DNA of 52,566 nt from a virus: the IMG/VR virus record IMGVR_UViG_3300048588_000115, positions 1 to 52,566 of that record. One strand, 5' to 3'. A model generated the notes under the pieces. It did not search any database. It saw only the letters and a list, made by a program, of their open reading frames with translations, and was not told the DNA's origin. The position numbers and the translations under genes were made by a program. Each line of letters opens with the position of its first letter. The first letter of the stretch is position 1. Below, piece by piece: positions 11,055 through 52,566 of this stretch.

Positions 11055-12190
11055 TGGAAAACATTTTAACATTTGACGTTGAAACCACTACATTTAACAA
11101 AGGACATCCTTTTGACAAAAGAAACAGTTTGGTCAGCTATGCTGAGCTATCTGGCAAACCCGATCCTAGTTTTAAATACTATCTCGATCCTGATTTTAAT
11201 AATTATCTCGCTGCTTGTGTGGATGATGCTGACATATGTGTGGGCTTTAACATTAAATTTGATTTTCATTGGCTATTTAATCTATTTCCTACGACAGATT
11301 TATCTAGAGTTAAAGTATGGGATTGCCAATTAGCAGAATTTATTTACTCTGGACAAGAAGCGCGTTATGCGTCACTTAATGAAACGTGTGAGAAGTATGG
11401 CCTACCAACTAAAATTGATTTGGTGGCGGATTACTGGTCACGCGGAATCGATACCAAAGACATTCCAGTGTCCATTCTTGAAGAGTACAATAAGTGGGAC
11501 GTGCAACTTACCAAAATGCTCTATGATGTACAACAACAACTGCTTAGTGAAAAGCAGAAAAGATTGGTGTGGTTACTAGGTGAAGACCTCAAGGCGCTAC
11601 AAGCTGCCGAGTATGCTGGTATTAAGTTTGATACTGACAAAGCACTTGCAACAATTGCGCAATATAAGGCTGACTTGGAAAGTATTGATCGTGATCTTTC
11701 TCAGTTTCTGCCTGATGGGATTCCTGAAGGCTGCTTTAATTACAATTCTGGGGATCATTTAAGTGTATTGCTCTACGGCGGGACGTTATCGTTTGATTGG
11801 GCCATTGAAGAACCAGCCGTATACAAGTCGGGGGAAAAGAAAGGTCAAGAATATATACGTCGACGGTGGCAAACTACACCCATTCAGTTTCAACAACACT
11901 TTAAACCGTTACCGGGAACAGAGGTTGCTAAAACTGCTAAACTCCCAGACGCGAAGCAACGCTTCTATCAAACTGACCAACCAACGTTCGCACAACTTAA
12001 GACGAAGAAACGTGAAAGTAAGTTACTATTGGAGTTGCTTACGATCCGTGCCAACAAGATTAAAGTGGTGGGAATGATTGAAAGTGTATTAAATTTGTTT
12101 GAAAATAAGCATTGGGCCGATGACTATATTCATGGGCAATTTAATCAAAATGTGGTAGTTACTGGTAGATTGAGTAGTTCTGCGCCTTAA
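11054..12190 (+). CDS. family-A DNA polymerase, exon 1 / N-terminal part (3'-5' exonuclease and start of the pol domain)
   Basis: Exo I motif FDVETT. It ends ...VVVTGRLSSSAP and then TAA, which is inside the conserved T-G-R-L-S-S-x-x-P-N-L-Q-N-I-P motif. Confidence 0.85.
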   Translation: MENILTFDVETTTFNKGHPFDKRNSLVSYAELSGKPDPSFKYYLDPDFNNYLAACVDDADICVGFNIKFDFHWLFNLFPTTDLSRVKVWDCQLAEFIYSGQEARYASLNETCEKYGLPTKIDLVADYWSRGIDTKDIPVSILEEYNKWDVQLTKMLYDVQQQLLSEKQKRLVWLLGEDLKALQAAEYAGIKFDTDKALATIAQYKADLESIDRDLSQFLPDGIPEGCFNYNSGDHLSVLLYGGTLSFDWAIEEPAVYKSGEKKGQEYIRRRWQTTPIQFQQHFKPLPGTEVAKTAKLPDAKQRFYQTDQPTFAQLKTKKRESKLLLELLTIRANKIKVVGMIESVLNLFENKHWADDYIHGQFNQNVVVTGRLSSSAP

Positions 12191-12886
12191 CAGATAGGGC
12201 GCTTTAAACCGTGTGAATTCATGGAAAGCCCAGAACGGGTAACCATGAGCCAAATTAACCAATCTACCTTCGGAGGTACATGTGGACATTAAGTATTTAA
12301 TTGAGAATACAGAATTAACACAAGCACAAATCGGTGCTGTGTTCGGATTATCACAAAAACAAGTGTCTAAATATATAAAAAGACACTATTCAAGCGAGTT
12401 TCGTAAGCACAGAAAAGTTAAATGCTATCGAAATTCAAAACTCGGAGATAAAAATCCGATGTTTAACATGCTTAAAGAAGATCATCACAATTATATCGGC
12501 GTTGTGTCAGACAACAAAGGTTATTGGATGATGTTGAAGCCAGAATGGTATACTGGTAGAAAGCGCAGCAAGCATGTGTTTGAGCATCATATTGTTGTTT
12601 GTGAGAATCTTGGTATTACAGAAATTCCGAAAGGGTTCTCTGTTCACCATTGTGACCATAATCCACGTAATAATTCCTTTAATAACTTAGTGTTGCTCCG
12701 TATGGGTGATCATACTCGTCTACACGGCGCATTAAAAGGTGCAACGACTATCTCGAAAGAGAGTACACTCAAGTGGGTGGAAGCGCACGGCACGCCTTGG
12801 TCGCGTGATGATATAGTCTCATCTGCATGGGGACATGCAGCAGCATATAGCGGGCAGGAAGTAACGACTCCTGCTGAAGATAAATG
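12188..12886 (+). mobile_element. putative group I intron carrying an HNH homing endonuclease ORF
   Basis: The 5' exon ends in U (12187). GCGCCU 12182-12187 pairs with GGGCGC 12197-12202, a P1 helix with a U-G wobble at the splice site. The last intron nt, 12886, is G. Joining 12187 to 12887 restores ...RLSSSAP-NLQNTP. Confidence 0.6.
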
Positions 12887-12887
12887 A
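12282..12887 (+). CDS. HNH homing endonuclease
   Basis: GTG start 5 nt after GGAGG. HHCDHNPRNNSFNNLVLLRMGDHTRLH is an HNH motif. The N-terminal HTH-like segment is LTQAQIGAVFGLSQKQVSKYIK. Confidence 0.8.
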   Translation: MDIKYLIENTELTQAQIGAVFGLSQKQVSKYIKRHYSSEFRKHRKVKCYRNSKLGDKNPMFNMLKEDHHNYIGVVSDNKGYWMMLKPEWYTGRKRSKHVFEHHIVVCENLGITEIPKGFSVHHCDHNPRNNSFNNLVLLRMGDHTRLHGALKGATTISKESTLKWVEAHGTPWSRDDIVSSAWGHAAAYSGQEVTTPAEDK

Positions 12888-13103: not shown

Positions 13104-13813
13104 TCAATGCCGATGTAAAAAGCCTTGAGGTATTTGTAGCAGCAGATCGATATGATGATAAAACCTTACAGTCTGAGCTTCTTAACCGCTTGGACCTTCA
13201 TGCGCTCAACCAAGAAAAGTTTGCATTACCAGACCGAGTTACCGCCAAGCGTTTCATCTTCAAGCTCTTATATGGAGCGACTGCCTATGGCTATTCGGTG
13301 GATTCAGACTTTATCAACGTTGGCTTTAGTGAAAAGCAATGGCAACGAGTTATTGATGTGTTCTACACAAAATATGATGGGATCGCCAAAGGACATATCG
13401 CTGACATAAACTACGCTAAAGAAAACGGATATCTGGAAATTCCGTCCGGTAGATACTACAACTTTGAGCCAAAGAAAACATCTTATGGATATAAGTGGCC
13501 GTTAACACTGATTAAAAACTACCCTATTCAGGGGTTTGGCGCTGATCTTGTGATGCTTGCTCGTATTGAGTTTTTCCGTCGGCTTAAGGCGTCAGGTTTA
13601 CCAGCAGATTTTATTTGTACGGTGCATGACTCATTAGTAGTTGACACACCCGACGAACTGTGTTATAATATTAGTACGATGTTAAAAGATTCAATCGAAC
13701 TGGTTCCAACACTCTGCCGTCAGGAATTCGACTATGAGTTCAAGTTACCAATTTGGTGTGAGATAAGTGTAGGTCCAAACAAACGCGATCTACAAGAGAT
13801 TAAACTTAATTAA
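13085..13813 (+). CDS. family-A DNA polymerase, C-terminal part (palm and fingers)
   Basis: The frame opens at 13085. NADVKSLEVFVAAD resembles motif A, RVTAKRFIFKLLYGATAYG resembles motif B, and ICTVHDSLVVD resembles motif C. There is no ATG or GTG; the first TTG is at 13190, after motif A. Confidence 0.8.
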   Translation, partial: GVLESLINADVKSLEVFVAADRYDDKTLQSELLNRLDLHALNQEKFALPDRVTAKRFIFKLLYGATAYGYSVDSDFINVGFSEKQWQRVIDVFYTKYDGIAKGHIADINYAKENGYLEIPSGRYYNFEPKKTSYGYKWPLTLIKNYPIQGFGADLVMLARIEFFRRLKASGLPADFICTVHDSLVVDTPDELCYNISTMLKDSIELVPTLCRQEFDYEFKLPIWCEISVGPNKRDLQEIKLN

Positions 13814-28744: not shown

Positions 28745-30252
28745 TATATTTGTGCAATATTTAAGTTCAGATAAAATCCTTTAAGCCAGAATGGATAATT
28801 ATCGGCATATTCAAATCTAAAACTTCGTTTCCTAAAGCGACCAAGACGATATATTTGTGGTGAGATACTGAATACATTAATTGTGCGTGTGGCTCCACTA
28901 GCCGTCGACCAATCCTTATCGCTCCATGTAATCGTTAAATTACTTGTACCAGTCACTTCTTCTTGGCTACAATCCAGAGTCAATCTATTGCATATTTTCC
29001 AATTAATAGTCTCAGCATCGATTAATTCTGTTGTGTAACGACACGTAAAGTTAACACCAAAATCTTGATATAATGAAGATGATAATAATGACACATACGT
29101 TTGGTTGTTAATTGCAAGATACATCGAACCATTTTGCATCAACCAGGCACCTTCAATGGCTAGTGCTGTTCCACTAGAATTGCGCCATTCATACCATTCT
29201 TTTAATTCGATATCATAAATCCAAGTAGCACCGGTGATTGCTAGCACATAAAATGTGTGCCCATCAATCGAGATATGATAGCCGGCAGTATTTAAACTTG
29301 CACGAGATTTGGCATTATCAGTTGAGACATATGTTTGTATTGTTCGCTCAATGGCTGGATTTGATACTTTTTTGACTTCAAATTGATCGATAGTGTATAC
29401 ACCAACATTGTGTTTTTCATCCTGACCAACAAAGTAAGTAATATCACCTATTGTTACCAAACCGGTAATATATCCAACTTGTCGTACAGCCGACGCATTT
29501 CGTTGTAGTGGACTACCAGATGCAATACCAGCGTCATAAAAATATTCAACGCTAGACACACCTAATACTACGATATAGTTTCTCATTTTAACAAGACGTT
29601 TCGCATAATCTGGGTGGATCTCAGCATTAATAAAATCACCAGCAGTCCATGCTGTAGGATCATTTAAATTGCTATTATAAATATCCCCAGTATTAGCATC
29701 AATTAAAAATACATATCCGTCGACATAAACAGGTGACGGTTCATGTGGTGTGGGCATATCTGCATCTGTTACTCGTGCACAAGATGTTGCCACATAATCA
29801 TCTACCCATAAATCAGTGCCGTCAGAAATAAGAATATAGCGATCACTACTAACAGAGTCAAGAAAACTACAAAACCCGACGAGCCCAGACGATGTGTTTA
29901 ATGTTGCAACTGTTCTAATAGAAGTACCAGAATCTGGTTTTACGCTATACAACTTATTACCTACAGCCCAGTAAAATGCATTTTGGTCTACATCATAATA
30001 CGTGCCACGTAGTACATCTGAACTACTCGCTTTTGTTAAATTATAGGCTGTTGCGCGTAAACCAGGACGCTTCTTTAATCGCTTTAGTGCAACACGATTT
30101 TGGCTGTCTTGAATTGAAACATCGTAGTACATGTTAACAATTTGAAGATCACGCTCATCTGTTAAATCACCATTACGTGTATTAACACGACCATCAACCG
30201 AAATTGGTATCGTTTTATAAGTACTAATTTGTGGTGATTGTGTATAAGCCAT
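28744..30252 (-). CDS. tail tubular protein B / nozzle-like structural protein
   Basis: 502-aa beta-rich ORF directly after the adaptor-like gene. The call rests on synteny and size only. Confidence 0.4.
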   Translation of the reverse strand: MAYTQSPQISTYKTIPISVDGRVNTRNGDLTDERDLQIVNMYYDVSIQDSQNRVALKRLKKRPGLRATAYNLTKASSSDVLRGTYYDVDQNAFYWAVGNKLYSVKPDSGTSIRTVATLNTSSGLVGFCSFLDSVSSDRYILISDGTDLWVDDYVATSCARVTDADMPTPHEPSPVYVDGYVFLIDANTGDIYNSNLNDPTAWTAGDFINAEIHPDYAKRLVKMRNYIVVLGVSSVEYFYDAGIASGSPLQRNASAVRQVGYITGLVTIGDITYFVGQDEKHNVGVYTIDQFEVKKVSNPAIERTIQTYVSTDNAKSRASLNTAGYHISIDGHTFYVLAITGATWIYDIELKEWYEWRNSSGTALAIEGAWLMQNGSMYLAINNQTYVSLLSSSLYQDFGVNFTCRYTTELIDAETINWKICNRLTLDCSQEEVTGTSNLTITWSDKDWSTASGATRTINVFSISPQIYRLGRFRKRSFRFEYADNYPFWLKGFYLNLNIAQI

Positions 30253-32771: not shown

Positions 32772-33110
32772 TTATAATTGATGGTTATTTCTTAACACAG
32801 AATATGGAACACTAACGTTTCCGGCTTGTGCACATCCTGCTGCGGCAAGTCCGGCATAACCGCTTTTAGTATCTAAAAAACAAATTTCTACAAAGGTGTC
32901 TTGTGGTTCATGCCGAATAAATGGAACTTGTTTTGGATCAGATTGGACGCGCAAGTATTTTTGTGGATGGTCAGCTTCCCAATCATTTTGGCAAACAATA
33001 AGACCATCCCATCTTTTTCTTACTTCATCAGATTTATAACGAACACCGCAGACATCACAGATAATATTCCATGAGCCGTGTTTGAAGTAATTATTACTTG
33101 CGTAACTCAT
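32772..33110 (-). CDS. hypothetical Cys-rich (zinc-ribbon-like) protein
   Basis: CDVCGVRY...GLIVCQNDWE. Confidence 0.5.
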   Translation of the reverse strand: MSYASNNYFKHGSWNIICDVCGVRYKSDEVRKRWDGLIVCQNDWEADHPQKYLRVQSDPKQVPFIRHEPQDTFVEICFLDTKSGYAGLAAAGCAQAGNVSVPYSVLRNNHQL

Positions 33111-33342
33111 TTAGCTGTGTAGTCCAATTAATTTCCATCTTATCAAGGCGTGTCCATAGTTCGTCTTTGAATTCACGGAAGTCTTCCTTTTTAAAGTAAG
33201 TATCTTTTACTTTATCCAGTTCGGTTTTATGTTCTTTAACTTGCTCTTTAAGGTCGCTATATGTTTGCTTCATAAACCATATTACTCCACCAAGTAAAAG
33301 ATTAATTACTACACCACCGATTGTCACTAATGAGGCATCCAT
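33094..33342 (-). CDS. membrane-anchored coiled-coil protein (holin- or spanin-like?)
   Basis: N-terminal TM segment VTIGGVVINLLLGGVIWF, then a charged helical region. Confidence 0.45.
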   Translation of the reverse strand: MDASLVTIGGVVINLLLGGVIWFMKQTYSDLKEQVKEHKTELDKVKDTYFKKEDFREFKDELWTRLDKMEINWTTQLNELRK

Positions 33343-34538
33343 TATATACTAATTCCAATTTGTAGACTAATTGTGTTACCATTATAATTTATTGTAGCAG
33401 GTTCTCCACTCCAACGCAATGTGGCATTACGCCCACTTAATGTGTATATTCCACGTTCCGCTGTTAATGCATAACTACCCGGAACACTATGAACAAATGT
33501 TACATCTTGCCCCGTTAGTGTGTATGTGCCGGTAAGAGCAATACGACCTAAGCTATAATATGCTTGTTGTCCACTAATACTATATGAACCACTATCGGCT
33601 GTGAGTGTGGAAACACCAGATGTGGTCGTGAACTGCGCCGACGTAACGATGTTGGAATCGTTCGCTGCCGCGTCCGTGTGGATCAGGTGCGCGTAGTAGC
33701 CGGTGCTCGCTGTCAGGCCGGTGGCGTTGAGCGTCTTGGCGCCCGTGCTGCTGACGGCCACAGAATCAGCCCACACGGCGCCCGTGCCGGCCTTCAGGTC
33801 CGTCGCGCTCGGCGGCGTGGCCGAGGTGCTGACGAAGGCGTACAGCGTGCCGTTGCCTTCGTCCGTCGTCGCTCCGACCGTCGCCGTCGTGCTGCCGGTG
33901 GCTGTGCCGGTGGGGCTGCTCAGGACGGGGGCGGTGGTGTCGCCGCCGCCAAGCGTCTCGGCTAGGAAATTGTCGTAGTGATATCCAGTGGTGTTGGTCG
34001 ACGCGGCGTTGTCCCGCAAGCCAGCCTTGCCAGCGGCGGTGATGGCTGAATCGGTGGCGCTGATCGCGGCCGACCCCTCGCCGAGCTTGTATAGCTCGAT
34101 GGCGCTGCCGTTGACTCGCAATTCCACAGCGTAACTGGTGCTCGTCGAGACGGTCTGTGCAACGTTCGAGCCCAATTGGGTATAGGTGCCCGCGACTCGC
34201 TTGTAGAGCTGCCAGTTAGCGCTGCTTCCAGACGAGAACGCAAGCCTGGCTTCGTAGTAAGTCAGCGCGCTTGTGTCCATGCGGGCGCACACCCCGGGGG
34301 CGTTTCCGCTGACGCCAGCGCCTGCCACGTAGATGTCTGCCTTGACAGAGTAGTCAGCGCTCGGTGGCGTCTCTGCCCGGTAGATCACGCAGTTGGTGCC
34401 GTTGCCGCGTGCGCGCTCGTCATTGGTGATGCGGAACCCGTTGCCGGCGCCCGGATGATTTACCCAGTTCGCGTCATGGTCCGGCAGGGTGTCTCCATCG
34501 GAACTTCCAGCGAATGCATCGGCGGCAATGACTGTCAT
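33342..34538 (-). CDS. chimeric structural / receptor-binding-like protein (GC-rich 5' part, AT-rich 3' part)
   Basis: 398-codon ORF. It has a T/S/A-rich Ig/Fn3-like middle and C-terminal repeats SGSYSISGQ / TGTYTLTGQ / GIYTLSGR. The composition step is near 33.62-33.66 kb. Confidence 0.5.
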   Translation of the reverse strand: MTVIAADAFAGSSDGDTLPDHDANWVNHPGAGNGFRITNDERARGNGTNCVIYRAETPPSADYSVKADIYVAGAGVSGNAPGVCARMDTSALTYYEARLAFSSGSSANWQLYKRVAGTYTQLGSNVAQTVSTSTSYAVELRVNGSAIELYKLGEGSAAISATDSAITAAGKAGLRDNAASTNTTGYHYDNFLAETLGGGDTTAPVLSSPTGTATGSTTATVGATTDEGNGTLYAFVSTSATPPSATDLKAGTGAVWADSVAVSSTGAKTLNATGLTASTGYYAHLIHTDAAANDSNIVTSAQFTTTSGVSTLTADSGSYSISGQQAYYSLGRIALTGTYTLTGQDVTFVHSVPGSYALTAERGIYTLSGRNATLRWSGEPATINYNGNTISLQIGISI

Positions 34539-35785
34539 TTTGTTCCCCGGATCGCTGTGGAGTACGACTCATACGACGAGTACACGCCAGCCCACCACAG
34601 GGCGCGCGTGCCACCGCTTACGCCACCATCAACGCCAATGGGCCGACAGTTGCGCATGCTTGACGCGCCGCCGCTGGTGACGTCGCGCAGTTTCGACCAC
34701 GACGATCCGCCGTCAGCCGTTGACCATTCGCTGAGTTCCCACGCACCGCCGGCCTGTTGGATGCTGGCGAACGCTTTGGCCGGATCGCCTCGATCCAGAG
34801 CCCCGCCGCCGGAGTAATAGGACTCCGATGAGTACAACCTCCCACCCATCGCGCACACTTCCGACGTTGACCACGAGCCGCTGACACACTTTGCGTAGCG
34901 CAGACGGTGGTCTGTCGTGGCGTTTGGAAATGTCGAATACAGCGCGTGGATCACGCCGTCCTTCACGAGCAGATCCCATACCCACGAGCGGTTCGCGCCT
35001 CCGGTGTGCACGAGCGTCGCATCTGCCGGCGTGATTGGACCGCTTCCAATGAGCGTGCCGTCGCTCTTGTAGAACAGCTCTGCGCCCGAGCCGTCAAGTT
35101 GCATGTAGACGTGGTAGACCGATGAATTCCCCTGGTTGGGATGCATATCGGTGAAGAACAGGTCGATCCTGTTCACGCCGTTGCCAACGCTCTTGACGTA
35201 AGGCCGCGTGCTGGCGTTGTCCAGCCAGGTGCGCTCCGCGTCCCACGTCCCGGCCGTCACGTCATACGCCCGAACGTTGATCGGGTTCGTCCCAACGCCT
35301 CCCGCGCCACTGCGGTAATGCAGGTACACCTTGTCGGTCTGGCTCAAGTAATATGGATTGCTGTACGTCGCAGGCGTCGTCACCGTCAGCGCCGCCGTAG
35401 AGCCCCACGCGCTGATGTCTTCTGCGTTCGTGCTGATGCGGTAGCGAGTGCCGCCCGTGTCGTTGTGCAGCGAGTAGGCTGAGAAAATGCGCCCGTCAGG
35501 CAAGAAGCAGAATCCTCCGTTGTTGTGGTCGTTCTGCTGCGTCAGTGCGTGAATTGTGGCTTCTGCTGTATCCCCGCTGGACTCGACACGCCTTGCCATG
35601 CACACGTTGCCATTGGCCTTGACGTACTGCGCGTATGTTGCGCCGTTGCGGTAGATCGCGCGCCGGTCTGAGAACCACGTCCAGATGCCGTCTGGCGCCA
35701 CCTCGTATTGAGCGGGTGCAGGCGCGTCCCTCCCCGCCCACAGGTCATCAGAATTCCTTACAAATAATGTATAATTATTCGCCAT
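34535..35785 (-). CDS. BNR/Asp-box beta-propeller-like protein (sialidase/lyase-like, depolymerase candidate)
   Basis: Asp-box TADGGSSW and repeated W/Y-rich blades. GC-rich body after an AT-rich first ~13 codons (MANNYTLFVRNSD). ATGA coupling downstream. Confidence 0.45.
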   Translation of the reverse strand: MANNYTLFVRNSDDLWAGRDAPAPAQYEVAPDGIWTWFSDRRAIYRNGATYAQYVKANGNVCMARRVESSGDTAEATIHALTQQNDHNNGGFCFLPDGRIFSAYSLHNDTGGTRYRISTNAEDISAWGSTAALTVTTPATYSNPYYLSQTDKVYLHYRSGAGGVGTNPINVRAYDVTAGTWDAERTWLDNASTRPYVKSVGNGVNRIDLFFTDMHPNQGNSSVYHVYMQLDGSGAELFYKSDGTLIGSGPITPADATLVHTGGANRSWVWDLLVKDGVIHALYSTFPNATTDHRLRYAKCVSGSWSTSEVCAMGGRLYSSESYYSGGGALDRGDPAKAFASIQQAGGAWELSEWSTADGGSSWSKLRDVTSGGASSMRNCRPIGVDGGVSGGTRALWWAGVYSSYESYSTAIRGTK

Positions 35786-36207
35786 TATGCTAGTGTGAAA
35801 ATACCGTTACTTGCATCAAAGTCAACAGAGAAAGATTCCCCATTGGCAAGTGTTAATGAACTAGCATAGTCCCAGAAAGCGATTAGTGGGGATGTGCTAG
35901 CGGTACCAGTATCCTTATATAAAACTGCATAACGGAATGGACCAACAGCACCAGATGCGTTCCATGTGACATCTGTGCCAACTACTTTTGCGGTACCAGA
36001 TGATGTGCTAACAGTAATTGTAGTTGCTGCACCGCCCGCAGTATAGCCATTACCTGCGGATATTTCCGTAATATCGTCAAAGAAGTCATCAGTTGCAGCA
36101 GTGGGGGCGGTATTGGTGAGTGCTACTTTAAATGTATCCGCATCCCAATCGATGCCACTGATGAGTTGTTTTTCTGTGAATGCTTGAAATTTAGTATATG
36201 TTGCCAT
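35785..36207 (-). CDS. hypothetical virion-associated protein
   Basis: 140-codon ORF with TAATG coupling. Confidence 0.5.
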   Translation of the reverse strand: MATYTKFQAFTEKQLISGIDWDADTFKVALTNTAPTAATDDFFDDITEISAGNGYTAGGAATTITVSTSSGTAKVVGTDVTWNASGAVGPFRYAVLYKDTGTASTSPLIAFWDYASSLTLANGESFSVDFDASNGIFTLA

Positions 36208-40243: not shown

Positions 40244-42328
40244 TTACTTCCCTGGTGCACGCCGACTCTTTCCAGTCGACCCATTGCTCTTTGGTTGCGA
40301 TTGTGCTTTCTCCTTGCTTTGTTGCATCGCCTGCCGATGCTGCATATCACGTTGTGTCACACCTTGAATTGCTTTTGCTTTTGCATCCGCCGCAAAGATT
40401 TCACTCATTTGGATTTTACTTGCTGCTTCAAGTTGTGCACTCTGTGCTTTATTCTGCATTTCTTGGGCATGGGACTGTTGTTCCATTACCATTTTTTGTT
40501 CTGCACTACGACCCTCTAATTCCATTTTTTGCTGTGTGGACTGAGCATCAAGCGCAGCTTTTTGTTGGTCAGTTTGTGCTTTTGCCTGAATTGCTTGTAG
40601 CTTTGGATCAGGCGGTGGCTGAAATTGACCAGTCTGTTGTACTTCATCACTGAATAGCTCTTGCCAATTAGGTTGTTCTTGCGCCTCAAGAACACGTGAT
40701 ACAACCTTAACAGGATTAAGCATACCAGTTTGTAGCAGCTCCATCAGCCCCTGTGCTTTCATTAAGCGCTCAGACTGAGAAATTGCATTAGGATCAGCCC
40801 CTGGGCAAATATCATATAATGTATCATCAAAGTCTGCTGTAGTGACTTCACCATCAATTACTGTTTGGTACTCTGAGTAATCTACATATATACGGTTTAA
40901 CTCATAAAGCTTTTTAAATTCTTCTGTAAGAGCACGATAAATACGCTTATAAACCGCTGTAAATACTTTCATGCCCTGCTCAACGGTAGCCATTGTCGTG
41001 GTAGCTGGCGTATTTTGTCCAGGCATTTTACCAGTAAAGATTTCAGCAACTGAGGCTAATTCTTTTCCAGAACCAACTAAAACTTCCATAAGCTTTAGTA
41101 ACACGGCTGATGGCTCTTTAGTAGGTAATGGGATAATTTGCTTTTTAAGATCATCACCAATAGCTCCGGTTAGTGCTTTCCACTCACCAGGTTTAAAAGT
41201 ATTATCACCCATCTTCATTTTCAAGCCCTTACCTAAGAAGCCTGATTGTAAATTATATAAGTGACCTGAATCTAAAAGCTGATTAATTAGTGTGTTAACA
41301 GACTCATTTAATGGGCCAAGTAAAACACCAAATCCGATATCATAAAAAGAACCATCTGGATTTGGAATAAAACCATATTTCGTATAGTACTGAATTGGTT
41401 CAATTTCTTGAATTTTGCCCTTATCAGTTACATATACACCATCTTCGTCAAATCGTGCCACGACACGTAGAATCTTTTTGCTATAACGTTCAAATGTGAC
41501 AATATAAGGTTCTGGATAACCATCACCATCTTTGTCAAAGTAGCAGTGCTGCTCAACAATAAAATATGGGAGTGTCTCATCCTGTCGTATAATTGCAGGC
41601 TCGCTACGCTCAATATGAGCTTGTGGTTCCCCTAGATTAACATCATCAAAGATTTCAGCCGCGATACGAGAGGCCATAACACGTTGTGGCATCATAATAA
41701 TCTCAGATACACGATCAGCGTCTTCAAGAGATTTCGACCAATAATTCACTACAACATTTTTGGCTGGAATTAATTCAGACACGAATGTTTGTCTTACTGA
41801 GTTCCAGTAAGTTTTCTTAAAGGCCATACCAACAATCGGCAGCATAATAAGAAGCTTATCCATGTCCTCTTCCCATCCAGTCATTTTACGAAGGACTTGA
41901 TAGGACATATAGGTACTTACACGGTCGGCCTTATTCTTTTTCTCACCAGTAGAATCTTGACCAATTACAACAGCTTTTACAATGCGACCATCAGATGGCA
42001 CTAATGCAGGATAAGAACGAGCATTAAACTGCATTGCAGCAGTTGATAGTAATGGATATTTAACGTTTGCTGCACCGGGCCACGGATATGTTTTGTTTTC
42101 AACAACCTGAAGTGCAAGTTTAGTCCAGTCGTCTGCCGCTTTTTCCCAATCTTTGCGTGATAACAAATCATGCTCAAAGCCACTAGCGACTTGCTCTGCT
42201 AATTGTGCCAGTTGATCTTTACTAAACTTGTTAGTTAGGTTAGTAAATTCAACCAACTCACGAATAGACTCAGTATCCGGTTGCGACTGATCGGCCATCG
42301 TTTCCGAGGTTTGCTCTGTTAAGTTCAT
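40244..42328 (-). CDS. portal protein (start uncertain; the ORF track gives 42373)
   Basis: About 700 aa, directly downstream of TerL, with a Q/K-rich C-terminal tail. The call rests on synteny and size. Confidence 0.6.
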   Translation of the reverse strand: MNLTEQTSETMADQSQPDTESIRELVEFTNLTNKFSKDQLAQLAEQVASGFEHDLLSRKDWEKAADDWTKLALQVVENKTYPWPGAANVKYPLLSTAAMQFNARSYPALVPSDGRIVKAVVIGQDSTGEKKNKADRVSTYMSYQVLRKMTGWEEDMDKLLIMLPIVGMAFKKTYWNSVRQTFVSELIPAKNVVVNYWSKSLEDADRVSEIIMMPQRVMASRIAAEIFDDVNLGEPQAHIERSEPAIIRQDETLPYFIVEQHCYFDKDGDGYPEPYIVTFERYSKKILRVVARFDEDGVYVTDKGKIQEIEPIQYYTKYGFIPNPDGSFYDIGFGVLLGPLNESVNTLINQLLDSGHLYNLQSGFLGKGLKMKMGDNTFKPGEWKALTGAIGDDLKKQIIPLPTKEPSAVLLKLMEVLVGSGKELASVAEIFTGKMPGQNTPATTTMATVEQGMKVFTAVYKRIYRALTEEFKKLYELNRIYVDYSEYQTVIDGEVTTADFDDTLYDICPGADPNAISQSERLMKAQGLMELLQTGMLNPVKVVSRVLEAQEQPNWQELFSDEVQQTGQFQPPPDPKLQAIQAKAQTDQQKAALDAQSTQQKMELEGRSAEQKMVMEQQSHAQEMQNKAQSAQLEAASKIQMSEIFAADAKAKAIQGVTQRDMQHRQAMQQSKEKAQSQPKSNGSTGKSRRAPGK

Positions 42329-43769
42329 CTTGGTAGATTTCTTCCTCTTCTTCAGCCTTTGTAGGCGCTTCAATTAATGAGTCCAGCATTAAGCCTAAAT
42401 AAGCAAATGCATCAACTTGGTCATCCTTAGTTCCACGAGGAAACTTACAAAGTTCATCCTCAAATATCGGATACCAGTCAGAACTTTTGTCAAACTTTAC
42501 AGCATGTGCTCTTACACGAGCTTGTATAGACTTTGCACGTGCAATTTTATCTTTTCCACCATGCTTTAATGGCATTAAATTCAGATAAGTGCCAGTTCGC
42601 ATCATTTCTTCACGCAAGAATGGGCCAATTGCCTTTGAAACCTGCATTTCTTCGATGCCAACTAATTCTGGTGAGTAAATTCGCTGCAAACTAAGTAGTG
42701 TGTCAACAATTTCTCGACCATCTAAGCGATCACGAATCACATTTTTGGTGTGAATAATCTTATTTTCGTCAACACCCGCAATTAAGAACACAGAATAATC
42801 AGCAGTTTCTTTTTCTGAGATAGCTAAGTCAGCAGTAATATAGTAATTTAGCTTAATGCGCTTATCTTCAGTAGTTTCTGAAATAAAATCACCACGCTTA
42901 AAGTAGGCAACTGACTCATCAATCGGGCGATTGCGATATTCCTGTGAATAAACGTCAGCTAAACCACGATCAATATAGTCTTGTCGTTCTGCAATAAACC
43001 ACTCTTTCGTATATCGTGTCGGCCATAGGATGCTGGTAAAGTCATCATTATGTGCATCATACTTGAATGCTTGCCAACTAGCTCGTTTATTACGGCTATA
43101 TATCTTTAAATCAGTTACAACAGTTTGTTTATCCCACTCTGATGGCATTAAATTGTTAAGTAGACTGTCTTCATGCAGAATTGTACCAACAATCCGAATT
43201 ACACCACTTTGTGATAATGACGGTACCAGAGCACCATAAAACCACCGCTTAAACTTTGAACGTCGTTCTGAGTTTAGAACAATTTCATCATTTTCTAAAT
43301 CGTCACCAACAATAAGATCAGGTCTCTTGTTATTCCATTTTAAGCCACGAAGCTTTTGTTCAGAGCCTTTAGCAGTTAAACGAAATTGATAACCATCTTC
43401 ACATGTGACGATTACGTCATCTTCTCTATCTTTTGCAAACTCTTTAATTTTAAAGAGTGTATTAATCCGTTCGTTATCCGCTAGTTCTTTGATGATATCA
43501 CCAAGAAACTGTGTTGCCTGTGTAATAGTATCTGAAACAATCAGAACATATTGACGATTACGAAACAGAACAGCAGCGAGTACGTATGCTAGTGTTACCG
43601 CCGTACTTTTAGCGTGACGACGCGGTGCAGCAATAGCTACTTTAGAGTGCTTAGAGCTACAAAGATCCCACCACTCATAGTGGCAATCAGGGGATTCGAC
43701 AGCTTCGTCATAATTCTTTTGTAATAAGCTACTACTAAATCCCGCAATAATATCAGCGGTTAATTCCAT
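42270..43769 (-). CDS. terL: terminase large subunit
   Basis: Walker A-like AAPRRHAKST, Walker B LIVGDDLEND, and a C-terminal nuclease-like region. Confidence 0.8.
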   Translation of the reverse strand: MELTADIIAGFSSSLLQKNYDEAVESPDCHYEWWDLCSSKHSKVAIAAPRRHAKSTAVTLAYVLAAVLFRNRQYVLIVSDTITQATQFLGDIIKELADNERINTLFKIKEFAKDREDDVIVTCEDGYQFRLTAKGSEQKLRGLKWNNKRPDLIVGDDLENDEIVLNSERRSKFKRWFYGALVPSLSQSGVIRIVGTILHEDSLLNNLMPSEWDKQTVVTDLKIYSRNKRASWQAFKYDAHNDDFTSILWPTRYTKEWFIAERQDYIDRGLADVYSQEYRNRPIDESVAYFKRGDFISETTEDKRIKLNYYITADLAISEKETADYSVFLIAGVDENKIIHTKNVIRDRLDGREIVDTLLSLQRIYSPELVGIEEMQVSKAIGPFLREEMMRTGTYLNLMPLKHGGKDKIARAKSIQARVRAHAVKFDKSSDWYPIFEDELCKFPRGTKDDQVDAFAYLGLMLDSLIEAPTKAEEEEEIYQDELNRANLGNDGRSVATGY

Positions 43770-45343
43770 TATTCAGTTAAATAAGTTGCTTTACCGTATG
43801 CACCAATGTGATTCTTCGACTGGAATCCACGGATATCACGGCGATATCCGAGGTCGGCACCATCAGTCAACAGCGGAGAGCCTGCGAGCGGCACGCCGGC
43901 TGCGTTGACGAGCGGGTCGTCTGTTGAGCTGCTTCCATGCAGCGTGTGGCCGCTGGCCGCCGCCATGTCGTAGAAGCGGTTGTTGCTCTCGCCTGTCCAC
44001 GTCACGCCGCTGGACACGGCTGCTCCTGGCCCGGTGAACAGGTTGGCCTCAACGATGTTGTCTGTGGCTGCGTCAGCCTGTAGGCGCACTCCTGCCACGG
44101 TGCAGCCCGAGAAGGTGTTGCGCACGGCATGCAAGCTCTGGTTCGGCGACCCTCCGGTGTCGTTATGAGACTGCGCTCCGATGTAGATGCCAACGGCTAC
44201 GTCGTGACCATAATTGGCTTCCACCACGCAGTCTGTGCTGTCAAGCACCATCGCAGCACAGCCACTGTTTGTGGCGCCTGTTTTTCCGGGGATGTTCCTG
44301 AACTTGTTGGCCTCGACAATTGTTCTTTGGTTTCCGTGGTCAAGCAGTACGCCGTTGCCGTCGATGGTTTCGGTGTATATGCCGTCCATTTCGTTGTGGT
44401 GGACCCAATACTCGCCAAAGAATAAGTTGAAACCGCCATACTGCCCATAGACATCGCGCAAGATGTTGTGAGCAATCTCATTCCGGCCGAATCCTGGCGT
44501 CGTGCTTGGCGCAAACCCGCGCACCACATTGCCACCAAGCAGCGAACTGCCGACAGCGAACCCGCAGTTCCGCTCGATGTTGTGCCTGATCTTCAGGCCC
44601 GTGTTCAGGCCGTAGGTATTGAAGGCGCTGTTGACCTCGATAGGGATGCCGGCGCACCCCTCGAACACGTTGTGTTCGATGACGAGGTCGGCAATCGTGC
44701 GCGCAGTGACGCCAGTGTCTGACCGAAGATGGATGATTGAACGCGGAGATTCGCACTGATGAAACCTGTTGCCCGTGATCGTTGCGCGCGTTAGCGTGAC
44801 TGTTGCACTTGCGGCCGTCACAAACTGGCTGATGAACCCCTGCGAGCCGCACTCCCCGTAGAAGTCACAGCCATCAATGACCAGATCTGTAAGCGTGTTT
44901 CCGTTTGCAACCGGCAGGGCGACAACTTGTGTGCTTCCATCTCCAGTAATGGAACAGCGTATCACCCGCGTGTAGTGTGCGCCGTTACCGATGTTCAGCG
45001 CCCGCCCGCCGTTTCCGATCAGAGCCATGCCGATAATGTCGGTGTACTGCCTGCTGCCGTTGTTCAGGTAGTAGCCGCCTGATGGAGTTGACGTAATCGT
45101 TCCCGGATCTGGGTCGAAGCTTCCATCAATGACGCACCGGGTGGCGCCGCTGTTACCTCCATGTGCCCCAATGGCGGCATTCGCTGAAAGCGTATGTGTT
45201 CCGCAGACCTTGAGGGTGTCGCCACCCACGACGCCAGCGCCGCCCCAGACGATCTCTGTCCATCCGCCCCACGCCGTCGCGTAGCTAGTGCCGTCGCGCG
45301 TCCCGGCATGTGATGTATCAGGTCTGACGTACCAAGTCCCCAT
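43769..45343 (-). CDS. right-handed parallel beta-helix protein (pectate-lyase-like, depolymerase candidate), GC-rich
   Basis: N-terminus WYVRPDTSHAGTRDGTSYATAW and repeated N-x-x-G / H-N-I-type beta-helix rungs (HNIERN, HNILRD, HHNEMDG, EANKFRN). Hand count of 44521-44580 gives 62% GC. TAATG coupling to terL. Confidence 0.6.
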   Translation of the reverse strand: MGTWYVRPDTSHAGTRDGTSYATAWGGWTEIVWGGAGVVGGDTLKVCGTHTLSANAAIGAHGGNSGATRCVIDGSFDPDPGTITSTPSGGYYLNNGSRQYTDIIGMALIGNGGRALNIGNGAHYTRVIRCSITGDGSTQVVALPVANGNTLTDLVIDGCDFYGECGSQGFISQFVTAASATVTLTRATITGNRFHQCESPRSIIHLRSDTGVTARTIADLVIEHNVFEGCAGIPIEVNSAFNTYGLNTGLKIRHNIERNCGFAVGSSLLGGNVVRGFAPSTTPGFGRNEIAHNILRDVYGQYGGFNLFFGEYWVHHNEMDGIYTETIDGNGVLLDHGNQRTIVEANKFRNIPGKTGATNSGCAAMVLDSTDCVVEANYGHDVAVGIYIGAQSHNDTGGSPNQSLHAVRNTFSGCTVAGVRLQADAATDNIVEANLFTGPGAAVSSGVTWTGESNNRFYDMAAASGHTLHGSSSTDDPLVNAAGVPLAGSPLLTDGADLGYRRDIRGFQSKNHIGAYGKATYLTE

Positions 45344-46982: not shown

Positions 46983-47011
46983 ATTATACCACAGAAAAGG
47001 CGATTTGTCAA
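46983..47011 (-). promoter_or_regulatory. consensus sigma70 promoter for the minus (structural) arm
   Basis: The minus strand reads TTGACA-17 nt-TGgTATAAT, followed by AGGAG and ATG 46965. Confidence 0.75.
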
Positions 47012-47070
47012 TAGCAAAAAGCATATTTATTAAAAATAAATAGAAATATGTAAAAAAGTAAGAAAAAGAC

Positions 47071-47098
47071 TTGACTTTTTTTCAAAAGACGATATAAT
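47071..47098 (+). promoter_or_regulatory. near-consensus sigma70 promoter for the plus arm
   Basis: TTGACT at 47071-47076, a 16-nt spacer, and TATAAT at 47093-47098. Confidence 0.65.
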
Positions 47099-47099
47099 T

Positions 47100-47220
47100 A
47101 AGTAATATATATATATATAAGTAATAAAAGAATATAAAAGTTATTTACTAATAAGTTTTATGTTCTTTTATATATAAGTTATTTATTTAATTAATTATAT
47201 ATAAGTTGATAAAAAGATAA
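47100..47220. repeat. extremely AT-rich tract with repeated TATATAAGT words (possible DNA-unwinding element)
   Basis: tatatataagtaat, tatatataagttatt and tatatataagttgat are read directly. No ORF. Confidence 0.5.
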
Positions 47221-48391
47221 AAAGACTAGGGACGCGTAGCGTCTGCGAGCATCAGCGAGCCAAGTTACATTTAAATAACCCCTAGGAAGGCTTTAAAGGT
47301 ACCTAGAAGGCGTTAAAACAGGTGAAGGTATACCAGGGTAGCCAGAAGACATCTTAAGGGGCTAGAATAGCCTCTAATCGAATAGCCCTATTATTTCCCA
47401 CCCCATAAAAATGGTATAAGAGGTGTTTCACACCAATTCAACCAGAGAAGTTTTCCCCCCACCCCCTCTTTGTGACAGGGAAGACTACTCAGTTCCATAC
47501 ACTACTGTATGGTCTATTCATCATATGATACTACGTAGGGGAACGTTACCATGTAGGGTATGATTAGGGTTAACACCTATACCCCCTCCCACTATATGGA
47601 AATGCCCGGGAAGCCCCCTAGCTGGGCGATACGGCCGTTTTCGCTGAATCTGAGGCCGACCCCTTCAAAAATATAGTTATGCGCCTGTAGGGTATCCCTG
47701 ATTAATACCCGGTATGGTATGCCGTCACCCAGGTAAACACATACCCATACCCCGTACCGTATATACCCATACCCGTTATCACCTTACTTGACAAATGGTC
47801 TTTATTCTGGTATTCGCGCAGCGCAGGCAGGCCGGCGGCCGATACCTGACTAATACCGTCGGATACCCTTGTCAGGGTCGATCATTCGTGTTACCCTACG
47901 TGCGCGCGTGCGCAGATCCAGCCAGCAGCCTAGGAATGAGAATCATTCGCATCCACCCAGGCCGGGAGGGTTATTAACCCTACTGTTGACATGGGTATTT
48001 TTAACAGGCATAATGCAGACATGCGCTGAGTAATCGGTGCTAGCGAGCTAGGTCGGCGTGCTGACCGAGGCGGCTATCTTTAACAATCGATAATTGCAGA
48101 CCACGCGGCGAAGGCCAATGAACGCAGCCGCGCGAAACGTCTAGGGCGAATGCAAAAGCGCACAGCATGTGAATGCTCGCTTGCGGATTCCGTCTCCCGA
48201 TGGCCCGTCACTGCAACGTAGTGGACTGGCAATGCCAGACGTTCGCCGAATGGAAAGGGCGACTATAAAAATTACCACTTCGATAATAGATGGGGATATG
48301 GTGTAATGGCACACACCTAACGGATTCAACCGGCTTGAATCCCCATATCCTTGTACATTAACGCCGTTAACCTAACTGCTAGTGTGCAAGG
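47221..48391. other. ORF-free, motif-rich segment (iteron-like repeats and many hairpins), function unknown
   Basis: No credible ORF in about 1.17 kb. CTAG(G)AAGGCnTTAAA occurs twice (47282, 47304). TGTAGGGTAT occurs twice (47551, 47686). ATACCC/GGGTAT words are clustered at 47690-47870, and ATCATTCG occurs twice (47881, 47942). Confidence 0.6.
47986..48014 (+). promoter_or_regulatory. sigma70-type promoter TTGACA-17 nt-CATAAT with an adjacent palindrome
   Basis: TTGACA at 47986-47991 and CATAAT at 48009-48014. The inverted repeat GGGTTA-T-TAACCC at 47968-47980 lies just upstream of the -35. Confidence 0.5.
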
Positions 48392-49033
48392 ATGATGGAG
48401 ATACAAATGCAACATGCAATGGAAACCATCCGCACCAGCGGCTCGCTGCCCATGAAGAAGGCACCGATCCGCCTGGAATCGCGGGATGACCGGCTTCAGG
48501 GTGAACTGCTGTCGGCCGAAGTGCTCGCCGCTGCCAAGGGTCACGACAACATCTGGTTGGCCTTCGCGTGGCGTGTCATCGACATGACCCCGGAAGCGCG
48601 GGATGTGTTCGTGAACCGCATCAAGGCGGAGAAGTCGGCCATGACCAAGGGTCAGACCGAGGCTGGCGTCGACGAGAAGACGGCCAAGTCCCGCACCGCC
48701 ACGTTCGGAGTGCAGGTGTCCCGCTTGACCGGCATCGCCAAGGCGTGGAACGCCGGGGGCAGTGTCGAGGGTCTGTGTGACTACATGAATCAGGGCTTCA
48801 CCGACAAGAGCAAGCACGCCAAGCCCGAGGACATGCGGGCACATGCATCCTTCATCGGGATCTACGAGTACGCCAAGATCCTGAACGGGTCCGGCCTTGG
48901 TCGCAAGCCTGATGCACTCGTGGTCAAGCTCGCCAAGTTCATCAAGGCGAACACCAGCACCGACGCCGACGCCAATGACACGGCGCTGATTGCCAAGCTC
49001 ACCGAACTCTACAAGGAGTTCAACAAGGACTGA
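48392..49033 (+). CDS. hypothetical protein, GC-rich (alternative start 48407 after GGAG)
   Basis: 213-codon ORF with a balanced K/E/A composition. The overlapping minus-strand 306-codon ORF is H/R/G/L/V-biased, typical of antisense to a GC-rich gene. Confidence 0.6.
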   Translation: MMEIQMQHAMETIRTSGSLPMKKAPIRLESRDDRLQGELLSAEVLAAAKGHDNIWLAFAWRVIDMTPEARDVFVNRIKAEKSAMTKGQTEAGVDEKTAKSRTATFGVQVSRLTGIAKAWNAGGSVEGLCDYMNQGFTDKSKHAKPEDMRAHASFIGIYEYAKILNGSGLGRKPDALVVKLAKFIKANTSTDADANDTALIAKLTELYKEFNKD

Positions 49034-49040
49034 GCATCCT

Positions 49041-49056
49041 CCCCCGTGTTCGGGGG
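49041..49056 (+). terminator. GC hairpin after the 213-aa ORF (weak terminator candidate)
   Basis: CCCCCG-TGTT-CGGGGG, followed only by TT. Confidence 0.35.
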
Positions 49057-49129
49057 TTAGCATCATTAATGGTGTTAACCCCTGCACATGCAGGTCAACG
49101 CGGTGATAACCGCAGAAAGGTCGATCATC

Positions 49130-49300
49130 ATGGCACGCAAGCACACCCACCTTGGCGTCTACACTGTCCATGGCTTCATGACGCCGGCAATGGCAAAAGC
49201 GCAGAAGCTCCAACCCATCACGGTGCGCCAATACCGTGGTATCCAAGGTGCACGAGCCCGTGCACTTAAACTCCTGAACAACCGCACAACGGTGCGTTAA
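49130..49300 (+). CDS. hypothetical small basic protein, GC-rich
   Basis: MARKHTHLGVYTVHGF...; AAAGG lies before ATG 49130. The ORF track starts at 49088. Confidence 0.45.
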   Translation: MARKHTHLGVYTVHGFMTPAMAKAQKLQPITVRQYRGIQGARARALKLLNNRTTVR

Positions 49301-49619: not shown

Positions 49620-49704
49620 CCCCGAATGGTGTAATTGGTAGCCACATCAGCCTTAAAATCTGATGCCGTAAGGCGTGCCGGTTCGAGTCCGGCTTCGGGG
49701 ACCA
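49620..49704 (+). tRNA. tRNA-Leu (anticodon UAA), type II with a long variable arm, CCA encoded
   Basis: Hand-folded. Acceptor CCCCGAA/TTCGGGG, D arm GTG..CAC with GG, anticodon loop CTTAAAA, variable arm GCCGTAAGGCGT, and T arm GCCGG-TTCGAGT-CCGGC, then ACCA. Confidence 0.8.
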
Positions 49705-50336: not shown

Positions 50337-50412
50337 GTCACGTTAACTCAGTGGTTAGAGTAGCCGACTCATAATCGGTTGGTCGTTGGTTCGAGTCCAA
50401 CACGTGACACCA
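50337..50412 (+). tRNA. tRNA with CAU anticodon (elongator Met, or Ile2 if lysidinylated), CCA encoded
   Basis: Hand-folded. Acceptor GTCACGT/ACGTGAC, D arm ACTC-AGTGGTTA-GAGT, anticodon arm GCCGA-CTCATAA-TCGGT, and T arm GTTGG-TTCGAGT-CCAAC, then ACCA. Confidence 0.85.
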
Positions 50413-52191: not shown

Positions 52192-52566
52192 ATGGCAAAG
52201 AAAGAGTTTGGCTGGCATTTCGTAGCTGATAAGCTGCGTGATGGCTCGCCTATCCCTGCTGATGGTGTACCGCTTGTGTATAGCGGTGCTATTCGCATCT
52301 GTCGATCTGGCTTGCATTTCTCAAGCAAGCCTCATCAAGCGTTGCAATATGCACCAGGCAATACACTATGCTACGTGCAGGTGGCAGATGTACGTGAGCG
52401 GGGGGCAGACAAAGGTGTGTGCAGCAAACGTACAATTATTAAGCGGATTAATGCCAAGCAGTTGATGCGACGCTTCGCATGTGATCAAGCGTTGTCTGTT
52501 GCACATCTGCGTGAGCCCAATGCCGTTGTGGATAAGTATCTGCAAACGGCTGACCCTGCTTTGCGG
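52192..52566 (+). CDS. Ala/Trp 4-residue-repeat protein, paralog B, 5' part (continues at nt 128 across the junction)
   Basis: ATGGCAAAGAAAGAGTTTGGCTGGCATTTC... runs open to the window end. It is roughly 90% identical by eye to 50788..51162. Confidence 0.7.
   Translation, partial: MAKKEFGWHFVADKLRDGSPIPADGVPLVYSGAIRICRSGLHFSSKPHQALQYAPGNTLCYVQVADVRERGADKGVCSKRTIIKRINAKQLMRRFACDQALSVAHLREPNAVVDKYLQTADPALR

Follow-up and report, generated by a model that had tools for sequence, protein, structure and literature searches.

How does a block of GC-rich DNA come to begin inside one gene and to end inside its neighbor in an otherwise AT-rich phage genome? The question is raised by the virus record IMGVR_UViG_3300048588_000115, analyzed here over its whole length of 52,566 nucleotides (nt; the window), in which a stretch of high guanine-plus-cytosine (GC) content, GC-rich island 1, occupies 2.15 kb as one contiguous block across two minus-strand genes. 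These genes encode proteins of 416 and 398 amino acids (aa) and are referred to below as gene A and gene B. A preliminary description of the window had proposed that modules of two tail- or depolymerase-like genes were replaced by DNA from a donor with a much higher GC content, with a chimeric metagenomic assembly as the alternative. According to our analysis, island 1 is very probably the product of a horizontal in-frame replacement of a two-gene specificity cassette by DNA from a phage lineage of ~65% GC.

A compositional step inside two genes

A three-segment maximum-likelihood fit placed the change points of island 1 at positions 33,596 and 35,744, with 2-log-likelihood support intervals of 33,584-33,636 and 35,734-35,758, respectively. 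The fitted GC content was 0.633 in the island against 0.368 to its left and 0.449 to its right, and the fit surpassed a one-segment model by 142 log-likelihood units. Along 200-bp windows, GC content changed from 0.31-0.44 outside to 0.60-0.72 across ~33,600-35,750, and no other 2.1-kb stretch of the contig reached the value of the island (0.634, against a mean of 0.436 and a standard deviation of 0.049). The contig background is 0.419 once all three of its GC-rich islands are removed. Two hand counts in the preliminary description, 63% GC for 34,561-34,620 and 43% for 30,001-30,060, came out at 63.3% and 43.3% when recounted.

The composition had been described as switching inside open reading frames (ORFs) and not between genes, which is borne out by the change-point fit and by the profiles of GC at third codon positions (GC3) in both ORFs. 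In gene B, GC3 stays at 0.8-1.0 up to codon ~300 and drops to 0.07-0.3 at codons ~303-308. The switch at about codon 306 separates the GC-rich 5' part from the AT-rich 3' part noted earlier, where the repeats SGSYSISGQ, TGTYTLTGQ, and GIYTLSGR are readable. Gene A, previously reported to have ~13 AT-rich first codons and a GC-rich body, shows a GC3 profile that climbs past codons ~10-15 with a switch at about codon 14, and its leader MANNYTLFVRNSD is likewise readable. Third-position GC is 0.1-0.3 on one side of these switches and 0.75-1.0 on the other. For island 1 as a whole, GC3 is 0.75-0.90, against 0.19-0.40 in the flanking genes of the same genome; at first and second positions (GC1 and GC2), the GC content of the island proteins is mildly raised, to 0.53-0.58. 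Both frames remain open throughout, and the coupling of the two genes by an ATGA overlap can be read directly in the sequence, as stated before; the outer gene junctions are both TAATG overlaps.

The tetranucleotide profile of the island is negatively correlated with that of its own backbone (r = -0.40) and strongly correlated with those of L112, L116, and L120, three GC-rich contigs (r = 0.87-0.90; contigs used for comparison carry L numbers). Thus, the discrete step for which the preliminary description had suggested checking window statistics appears in sliding GC content, GC3, and tetranucleotides alike. Examined as a candidate for horizontal transfer, island 1 shows a step that extends to synonymous sites.

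The cassette in GC-rich phages

Homologs of the two island genes occur together in other phages. A homolog of gene A, which belongs to the BNR_4 family, is directly followed by a lectin gene in L001, L112, L114, L115, and L116-119, and L113 (GC 0.65) contains the BNR_4 homolog and stops before the next gene. Uniform GC contents of 64-68% characterize L001, L112, L113, L114, and L116-119. The closest homolog of gene A (P0002, 78% identity) is located on L001, a contig of uniformly ~65% GC that also encodes an S78 protease and an HK97 capsid; the next ORF after P0002 is a homolog of the N-terminal domain (N-domain) of gene B (62%). Across L001, L112, and L113, the BNR_4 homologs are 78-81% identical to the island in amino acids and 72-77% identical in nucleotides. 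The pair is also carried by the 29.4-kb contig L112 (GC 0.67) and by L116-119 (GC 0.64), where the BNR_4 gene precedes, with a 4-nt overlap, a gene for a protein combining the lectin and an Fn3 domain; L116 additionally has lambda-type terminase and portal genes. More distant versions are found in L114 (GC 0.68) and in L115 (GC 0.44-0.46), in which the pair comes after homologs of p83 and p140, two genes that also precede the island in the window. Scanning IMG/VR with the propeller encoded by gene A recovered relatives at 37-81% identity, and the closest homologs of the island lie in genomes that match its composition (L001, L112, L113, L116, and L120, GC 0.64-0.68).

The GC3 of the cassette is 0.73-0.85 in the GC-rich orthologs and 0.29-0.33 in L115. 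Since L115 encodes an orthologous cassette at such values, the island proteins do not require a high GC content. The pair recurs side by side in varied phages and is therefore a conserved cassette that adopts the composition of its carrier. In the window, no drift of the GC3 of island 1 toward backbone values is detectable.

The recipient locus in backbone relatives

The recipient side was examined in backbone relatives, whose major capsid proteins (MCPs) are 77-87% identical to that of the window and whose GC content is 0.41-0.48. In L018, L019, L021, L024, and L025, the order is p140, gene A, gene B, and a small p82-like ORF; the latter was detected by tblastn in L018 and L019, whereas in L021 and L025 it is similar by eye and was missed by tblastn. 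Further on, p112 is present in L019 and L021 only, where the contigs extend far enough, and L017 stops just within gene A. At this position, the product of gene A is a SASA-type carbohydrate esterase (PF03629) in L019 and a PF00756 esterase in L021; L025 also has an esterase, whereas L024 encodes another protein, of 459 aa. These otherwise unrelated bodies (L017, L019, L021, L024, and L025) carry the N-terminal motif M/V-A-N/H-Y-x-L-R-V/I-G, the individual leaders being MANYRLRVG in L017, VANYRLRVG in L025, MANQTLYIG in L021, VAHYALRIG in L024, and MDYALRIG in L019, next to MANNYTLFV in the window. A short N-terminal peptide is thus kept among unrelated proteins of the same locus, as in phage receptor-binding and depolymerase proteins whose enzymatic domains are exchanged. 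Gene B in the relatives begins with a variable N-domain of ~200 aa, which resembles a carbohydrate-binding module (CBM) in L024 and L025, and continues with about five GxYxLxGQ repeats ending in LRWSGEP. The last three GxYxLxGQ repeats of gene B in the window align with the C-termini of gene B in L019, L021, L024, and L025.

Synteny is broken between constant flanks, with MCP, p136, p83, and p140 upstream and p82, p112, p232, and p502 downstream (where detected). The genes between p140 and p82 differ from relative to relative, and island 1 is missing at the same site in L018, L019, L021, L024, and L025, which have other genes there at backbone GC content. The 3' end of p140 is the last stretch conserved at the DNA level before the relatives diverge. 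In a survey of 70 p140 loci, made with heuristic ORF calling, the two downstream ORFs were usually within ~0.1 GC of their flanks, and the window was the largest outlier (+0.15 to +0.23). In IMG/VR, p140 has 349 relatives, whose contigs span GC contents of 0.35-0.70; p140 is usually followed by highly variable genes and therefore marks a general plasticity zone.

The presence of the cassette in GC-rich phages, the other genes at this site in backbone relatives, and a signature matching GC-rich phages sustain the earlier proposal of a replacement from a much GC-richer donor. What has to be amended is the unit of exchange, which is not a set of modules in two genes but one contiguous two-gene cassette, bordered at one end by an N-terminal peptide and at the other by a C-terminal repeat module, both of them conserved.

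Proteins encoded by the cassette

Gene A matches the Pfam family BNR_4 (PF15892) over residues 50-310 with 102.9 bits (gathering cut-off, 27.3), and its AlphaFold2 (AF2) model, built on a 30-sequence alignment, is a seven-bladed beta-propeller (predicted local distance difference test [pLDDT] 92.6, predicted template modeling score [pTM] 0.90). The propeller assignment made from the letters alone is thereby upheld. The best folds in the PDB are the PL25 ulvan lyases 5UAS and 5UAM, PL42 7ESK (the L-Rha-alpha-1,4-GlcA lyase FoRham1), GH145 5MUK, and PL24 6BYP, and the PL42 propellers were formerly placed in GH145 (BT3686). Among viral proteins, the best matches in fold belong to minor tail proteins, namely to their C-terminal domains, e.g., in Mycobacterium phage PP. 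Direct sequence searches of the PDB with gene A and gene B returned nothing useful, and a profile search of the PDB with gene A did not reach 7ESK or 5UAM.

Across 30 homologs of gene A, His86, His106, Tyr140, and Tyr195 do not vary, and Arg157 hardly does. The spacing of 20 residues between His86 and His106 parallels His85/His105 of FoRham1, itself a member of BNR_4 (PF15892), and His123/His143 of PL25 (PMC8377490). This shared spacing may hint at the catalytic His (base/acid), neighboring His, and neutralizing Arg that such lyases have in their anterior pocket. From its fold and Pfam family, gene A is best described as a predicted surface-glycan-modifying enzyme, either a lyase or a glycosidase. 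It adds an uncharacterized phage clade to the BNR_4 (PL42/PL25-like) propellers, and, judging from the models, these phage propellers are candidate depolymerases for polysaccharides of the rhamnose/uronic-acid type. Of the 'tail/depolymerase-like' label given earlier to the two genes, the second half agrees with the lyase-type fold; the first half goes beyond what the position of the locus indicates, since the head genes lie on one side of it and the tail genes on the other. Residues 1-18 of gene A are disordered in the AF2 monomer model, which would be compatible with a docking peptide.

The N-domain of gene B resembles the CBM66 of levanase (4AZZ, profile E value 2.6e-6; 4B1M, Foldseek E value 3e-7, target-normalized template modeling [TM] score 0.81) and is 61-62% identical in amino acids to the ORF located directly after BNR_4 in L001 and L112. 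Gene B is thus predicted, from these models, to be a CBM66-like glycan-binding protein. Its Fn3-like domain, modeled by AF2 with high confidence, is 85-97% identical in amino acids to a domain found in many unrelated architectures; compared with L120 and L121, it is 97% identical in amino acids and just 86% in nucleotides. Side by side, the copies in the window (33,621-33,944), L120 (5,316-5,636), and L116 (6,568-6,891) have 86-97% protein identity and 81-86% DNA identity. From such comparisons, the Fn3-like domain appears to be promiscuous and under unusually strong purifying selection. The compositional boundary within gene B coincides with the boundary between this domain and the repeat module, for which the AF2 monomer has a pLDDT below 50. 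Neither Pfam nor PHROGs recognized the 398-aa ORF or its C-terminal repeats. When the 93-aa C-terminal module was used by itself as a homology query, nothing came back, not even the query, and no closer pre-swap allele was found. The coordinates of these parts and of their neighbors are collected in Table 1.

Table 1. Coordinates of island 1, its two genes, and the adjoining genes in the window
Feature	Position	Strand	Basis
GC-rich island 1	33,596-35,744		Maximum-likelihood change points, GC 0.633
p140, conserved 140-aa protein, phrog_644, AT-rich left flank	35,785-36,207	-	PHROG match, E value 7e-26
Gene A (416-aa ORF)	34,535-35,785	-	BNR_4 propeller ORF
Gene A leader, 13 codons, MANNYTLFVRNSD, AT-rich, recipient-derived	35,747-35,785	-	GC3 profile; motif common to relatives
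Gene A body, GC-rich seven-bladed propeller, predicted polysaccharide lyase or glycosidase	34,535-35,746	-	PF15892, AF2, folds
Gene B (398-aa ORF)	33,342-34,538	-	Start codon overlaps gene A stop (ATGA)
Gene B codons 1-198, GC-rich CBM66-like, lectin-like beta-sandwich	33,945-34,538	-	Profile and Foldseek
Gene B codons 199-306, GC-rich Fn3-like domain	33,621-33,944	-	GC 0.70, GC3 0.90
Gene B repeat module (GxYxLxGQ, ending in LRWSGEP), codons 307-398, AT-rich, recipient-derived	33,342-33,620	-	GC3 0.19
p82, small AT-rich right-flank protein	33,094-33,342	-	Homologs after gene B in relatives
p112, Cys-rich small protein, far edge of the variable zone	32,772-33,110	-	Conserved in same-backbone loci

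Proposed course of the replacement

Under the proposed replacement, a resident p140-gene A-gene B locus would have recombined with the BNR_4-lectin cassette of a phage or prophage of high GC content, and a single event would have replaced everything from the end of the gene A leader to the start of the gene B repeat module. The incoming cassette would have consisted of the BNR_4 propeller and the CBM66-like and Fn3 domains, bringing its own ATGA gene junction. Because DNA similarity is low, the recombination would have been illegitimate or driven by short homology (microhomology), either during co-infection or with a prophage; a scan of ten early ORFs found no recombinase among them. Selection would then have kept only those products that had both the N-terminal peptide and the C-terminal repeat module. 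In the phages of Klebsiella, K1E/K1-5, and SP6, receptor-binding proteins dock via conserved N-terminal peptides of 7-11 residues, and their enzymatic domains are exchanged horizontally (PMC6872550). By analogy with those peptides, the two retained AT-rich segments may dock the proteins to the virion, and surviving crossovers would map to these ends because they serve in docking. The swap would retarget binding and cleavage by the virion to a different surface polysaccharide.

Several observations weigh against this replacement and have to be set beside it. The junctions of island 1 are those of the assembled sequence, and in a metagenome scan with the junction-spanning C-terminal peptide, a common repeat pattern, the window was not among the matches listed. 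Exact-protein look-ups of the two island ORFs and of P0001 likewise yielded no recorded contig, and the IMG/VR relatives of the propeller did not include the window. According to a cluster look-up, BNR_4, the 398-aa ORF, p140, and p82 are each recorded on two contigs, which are not necessarily independent. On the donor side, both island proteins had zero matches in 50,697 GenBank phage records, and the best donor-like sequences are only 72-77% identical in nucleotides (86% in the Fn3 domain), so that the real donor is unsampled and the age of the transfer unconstrained. On the recipient side, the leader in the window is just loosely similar to those of the relatives (MANNYTLFV against MANYRLRVG), and DNA conservation among the relatives stops essentially at the stop codon of p140.

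Recurrence of GC-rich islands in relatives

Three relatives contain GC-rich DNA in a comparable setting. The gene at the tailspike position of L021 (5,403-7,391, 662 aa) begins with 38 AT-rich codons (MADLGTVV...KIFVV), after which GC3 is mostly 0.6-1.0 to near its end; as read from its sequence, an in-frame GC-rich module replacement of the kind seen in island 1 has here affected another gene. In L106, an island with a GC content of ~0.59 (2,553-4,585 by threshold, about 2.4-4.9 kb on a finer profile) is situated in the interval from the capsid gene to p112, and the first of its ORFs has an AT-rich start. A further island, at 1,448-2,373, lies upstream of p112 in L107, a fragment without the capsid gene. 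The islands of L106 and L107 have GC contents of 0.56-0.59 against 0.42-0.46.

Other explanations

The explanation that survives best leaves the recombination itself unchanged and concerns the host: an AT-rich phage may infect a GC-rich host and have taken the cassette from a prophage or a co-infecting phage of that host, in which case no transfer between hosts would be required. The preliminary description had called such a replacement unusual if donor and recipient have the same host. The closest cultured relative, Alcaligenes phage vB_Af_QDWS535 (TerL 54% identical, p140-A-B locus lacking), has a GC content of 48% over its first 22 kb, possibly below that of its hosts; Alcaligenes faecalis has ~56-57% GC. 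Furthermore, the phage encodes a tRNA-Leu(UAA), and TTA, the commonest leucine codon, accounts for 33% of them in the backbone and 0% in island 1, a pattern that would be expected when the host reads TTA poorly. The recurrence of GC-rich module capture in relatives also speaks for such a host. However, gaps of at least 20 GC points between phage and host are uncommon. In addition, searching one genome each of 185,579 bacterial and archaeal species for a prophage or donor host found no copy of the cassette, the best cellular hits to BNR_4 (Actinomycetota, Kordia, and others) being at most 34% identical. We therefore treat a GC-rich host as a possibility to be entertained, with somewhat more weighing against it than for it.

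A broader interpretation would be that the AT-rich lineage habitually captures host-recognition cassettes from unrelated phages of ~65% GC by means of a 'two-adaptor' locus, with fixed docking ends (the N-terminal peptide and the C-terminal repeats of the next gene) between which any enzyme-plus-lectin pair can be dropped. Taken jointly, habitual capture and such a locus seem to us unlikely. If they were true, either these phages would replicate in hosts at least 20 GC points above their own composition, or functional specificity modules would flow between phages whose hosts are very different, and composition-based host prediction would be unreliable for these phages.

A chimeric assembly, in which the assembler spliced a fragment of a GC-rich phage into an AT-rich contig, would find both of its templates in the same library, since the nearest relatives of the island and those of the backbone co-occur in one sample series. 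Indeed, contigs of both kinds, the AT-rich backbone relatives and the GC-rich donor-like ones, were recovered from one JGI series (3300020037-3300020050) and even from a single sample (L025, L110, and L112 from sample 3300020050; L108 and L113 from sample 3300020049), a co-occurrence that also speaks for a real exchange. However, two in-frame misjoins would have been needed, exactly at module boundaries that hold across the family and back into the same synteny (p82 and p112), and the three GC-rich islands of the contig would raise this number to six. The switches are localized to ~25-50 bp, and, to judge from the workings of de Bruijn assembly, no k-mer-length stretch would be common to genomes of 40% and 63% GC, except where a real recombinant is present. 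The contig also closes on itself via a 127-bp terminal repeat, and the same kind of intragenic switch is found in contigs of other samples. Because the independently assembled L021, L106, and L107 carry GC-rich islands in host-recognition genes, a chimera is very unlikely.

Least probable of all is a native and old block whose high GC content is kept by amino acid composition or by selection on these proteins, which are indeed rich in Gly, Ala, and Thr and somewhat raised in GC1 and GC2, but the contrast is greatest at synonymous third positions (0.75-0.90 against 0.19-0.40), L115 encodes the orthologous cassette at a GC3 of 0.29-0.33, the switch occurs within a few codons inside ORFs, and the backbone relatives hold unrelated genes at the site. 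Two causes of the GC step itself were also rejected: amino acid composition is ruled out by GC3, and a local mutational bias or a diversity-generating mechanism is ruled out by the sharp boundaries and the foreign homologs.

Genome context

The window is the genome of an uncultivated, AT-rich (~42% GC) virulent phage. A terminal direct repeat of 127 bp (1-127 and 52,440-52,566) is present, and the contig is therefore probably a complete, circularly assembled genome of ~52.4 kb. When the DNA of the region was compared with GenBank phages, the capsid gene alone was matched, and weakly. Early and replication genes occupy the plus strand up to ~20.8 kb and include a phiEco32-like amidoligase/GATase/ATP-grasp set, a DnaB-like helicase, a split family-A DNA polymerase, and a ribonucleotide reductase. 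Virion genes fill the minus strand between ~47 kb and 20.8 kb, and those that are annotated or conserved are read in the order terminase, a 709-aa protein, a Mu GpT/Phage_capsid_4-type capsid, p136, p83, p140, the island genes, p82, p112, a pectate-lyase-like tailspike, p232, and a P22-type 'stabilisation' protein; after these come other, unannotated ORFs, one of them of 1,534 aa. The 709-aa protein, which has no family match, is a portal candidate by its position. Directly downstream of gene B, p82 has weak PHROG matches to phrog_462 (lipoprotein) and phrog_739 (Rz-like spanin), and its homologs come directly after gene B in L018, L019, L098, L099, and L102; p112 recurs at 15 IMG/VR loci that share the backbone.

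Two other GC-rich stretches were observed in the window. The second island (43,769-45,343, minus strand, GC ~0.59) is essentially one whole ORF of 524 aa, located directly upstream of the terminase gene (42,270-43,769) and overlapping its start. Its tetranucleotide profile resembles that of island 1 (r = 0.84), and the ORF had no sequence match in Pfam, PHROGs, or the PDB. The third stretch, at ~47,800-49,300, reaches a GC content of 0.64 and has competing ORFs on both strands, one of 213 aa (48,392-49,033, plus strand) and one of 306 aa (48,326-49,246, minus strand), the latter with no match in Pfam or PHROGs. Just past the start of the minus-strand virion operon, positions 47,000-47,300 are extremely AT-rich (GC 0.15-0.25) and may be a regulatory region or an origin.

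Among the plus-strand genes, the family-A DNA polymerase is divided between two ORFs (11,054-12,190 and 13,190-13,813) with an HNH endonuclease ORF (12,282-12,887) between them, and looks like a gene interrupted by a homing endonuclease. The cluster at 1,368-7,159 (plus strand) encodes a phiEco32-like COOH-NH2 ligase, an amidoligase_2, a peptidase C26/GATase, a second glutamine amidotransferase, and a RimK-like ATP-grasp protein, and looks like a peptide- or amino-acid-ligation system of the early region. Genes for tRNA-Leu(UAA) and tRNA-Met are located at 49,620-49,704 and 50,337-50,412, respectively.

Comparison with known systems

Both acquired islands of atypical composition and the mosaicism of phages, whose junctions fall at the borders of genes or domains, are classical concepts. 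As in classical acquired islands, a sharp step in GC and GC3, composition-matched homologs, and absence in relatives are found for island 1. Unlike them, its boundaries lie inside two ORFs, and it is fused in frame to resident coding sequence at both ends. Island 1 is thus a marker of gene flow between phage lineages that differ greatly in composition, and such flow recurs in relatives.

The swapping of receptor-binding or depolymerase modules is the main phage route to a change of host range and the basis of engineered 'plug-and-play' phages. The natural swap described here would differ from the usual pattern in three respects. First, the enzyme and its partner lectin move jointly across a gene boundary. 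Second, the fixed ends are an N-terminal peptide of ~13 residues and a C-terminal repeat module. Third, donor and recipient are ~22 GC points apart, and GC3 has undergone no detectable shift to the backbone. Since mosaic exchange of specificity modules is well established, the locus extends known biology and overturns nothing.

At the level of the proteins, gene A has the fold of the PL42 enzyme FoRham1 and of the PL25 and PL24 ulvan lyases (Foldseek E value 6e-17, TM score 0.70-0.73) and shares its Pfam family with FoRham1. However, sequence identity to the PL42/PL25 propeller enzymes is only 14-15%, and gene A differs from them in being phage-encoded and in having a docking-type leader. The N-domain of gene B shares its beta-sandwich fold with the CBM66 of the Bacillus subtilis levanase SacC (4AZZ and 4B1M) at 17% identity. 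Unlike in SacC, the CBM66-like domain is part of a separate protein, which continues with an Fn3 domain and a phage repeat module.

The nearest parallel for the locus as a whole is found in the modular depolymerases of Klebsiella phages of the KP32/KP34 type, Escherichia coli phages K1E/K1-5, and Salmonella phage SP6 (Latka et al. 2019, PMC6872550). There, too, an N-terminal peptide of 7-13 residues is carried by unrelated enzymes, synteny is broken, and horizontal exchange affects the enzymatic part, with a junction that falls inside an ORF. In contrast to those systems, the exchanged block in the window crosses a gene boundary into a second gene, in which the conserved part is C-terminal, and neither an anchor protein nor a docking domain like that of T4 gp10 was identified. 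The window also stands apart from them in the gap of ~22 GC points between donor and recipient and in the position of its locus between the head and the tail genes.

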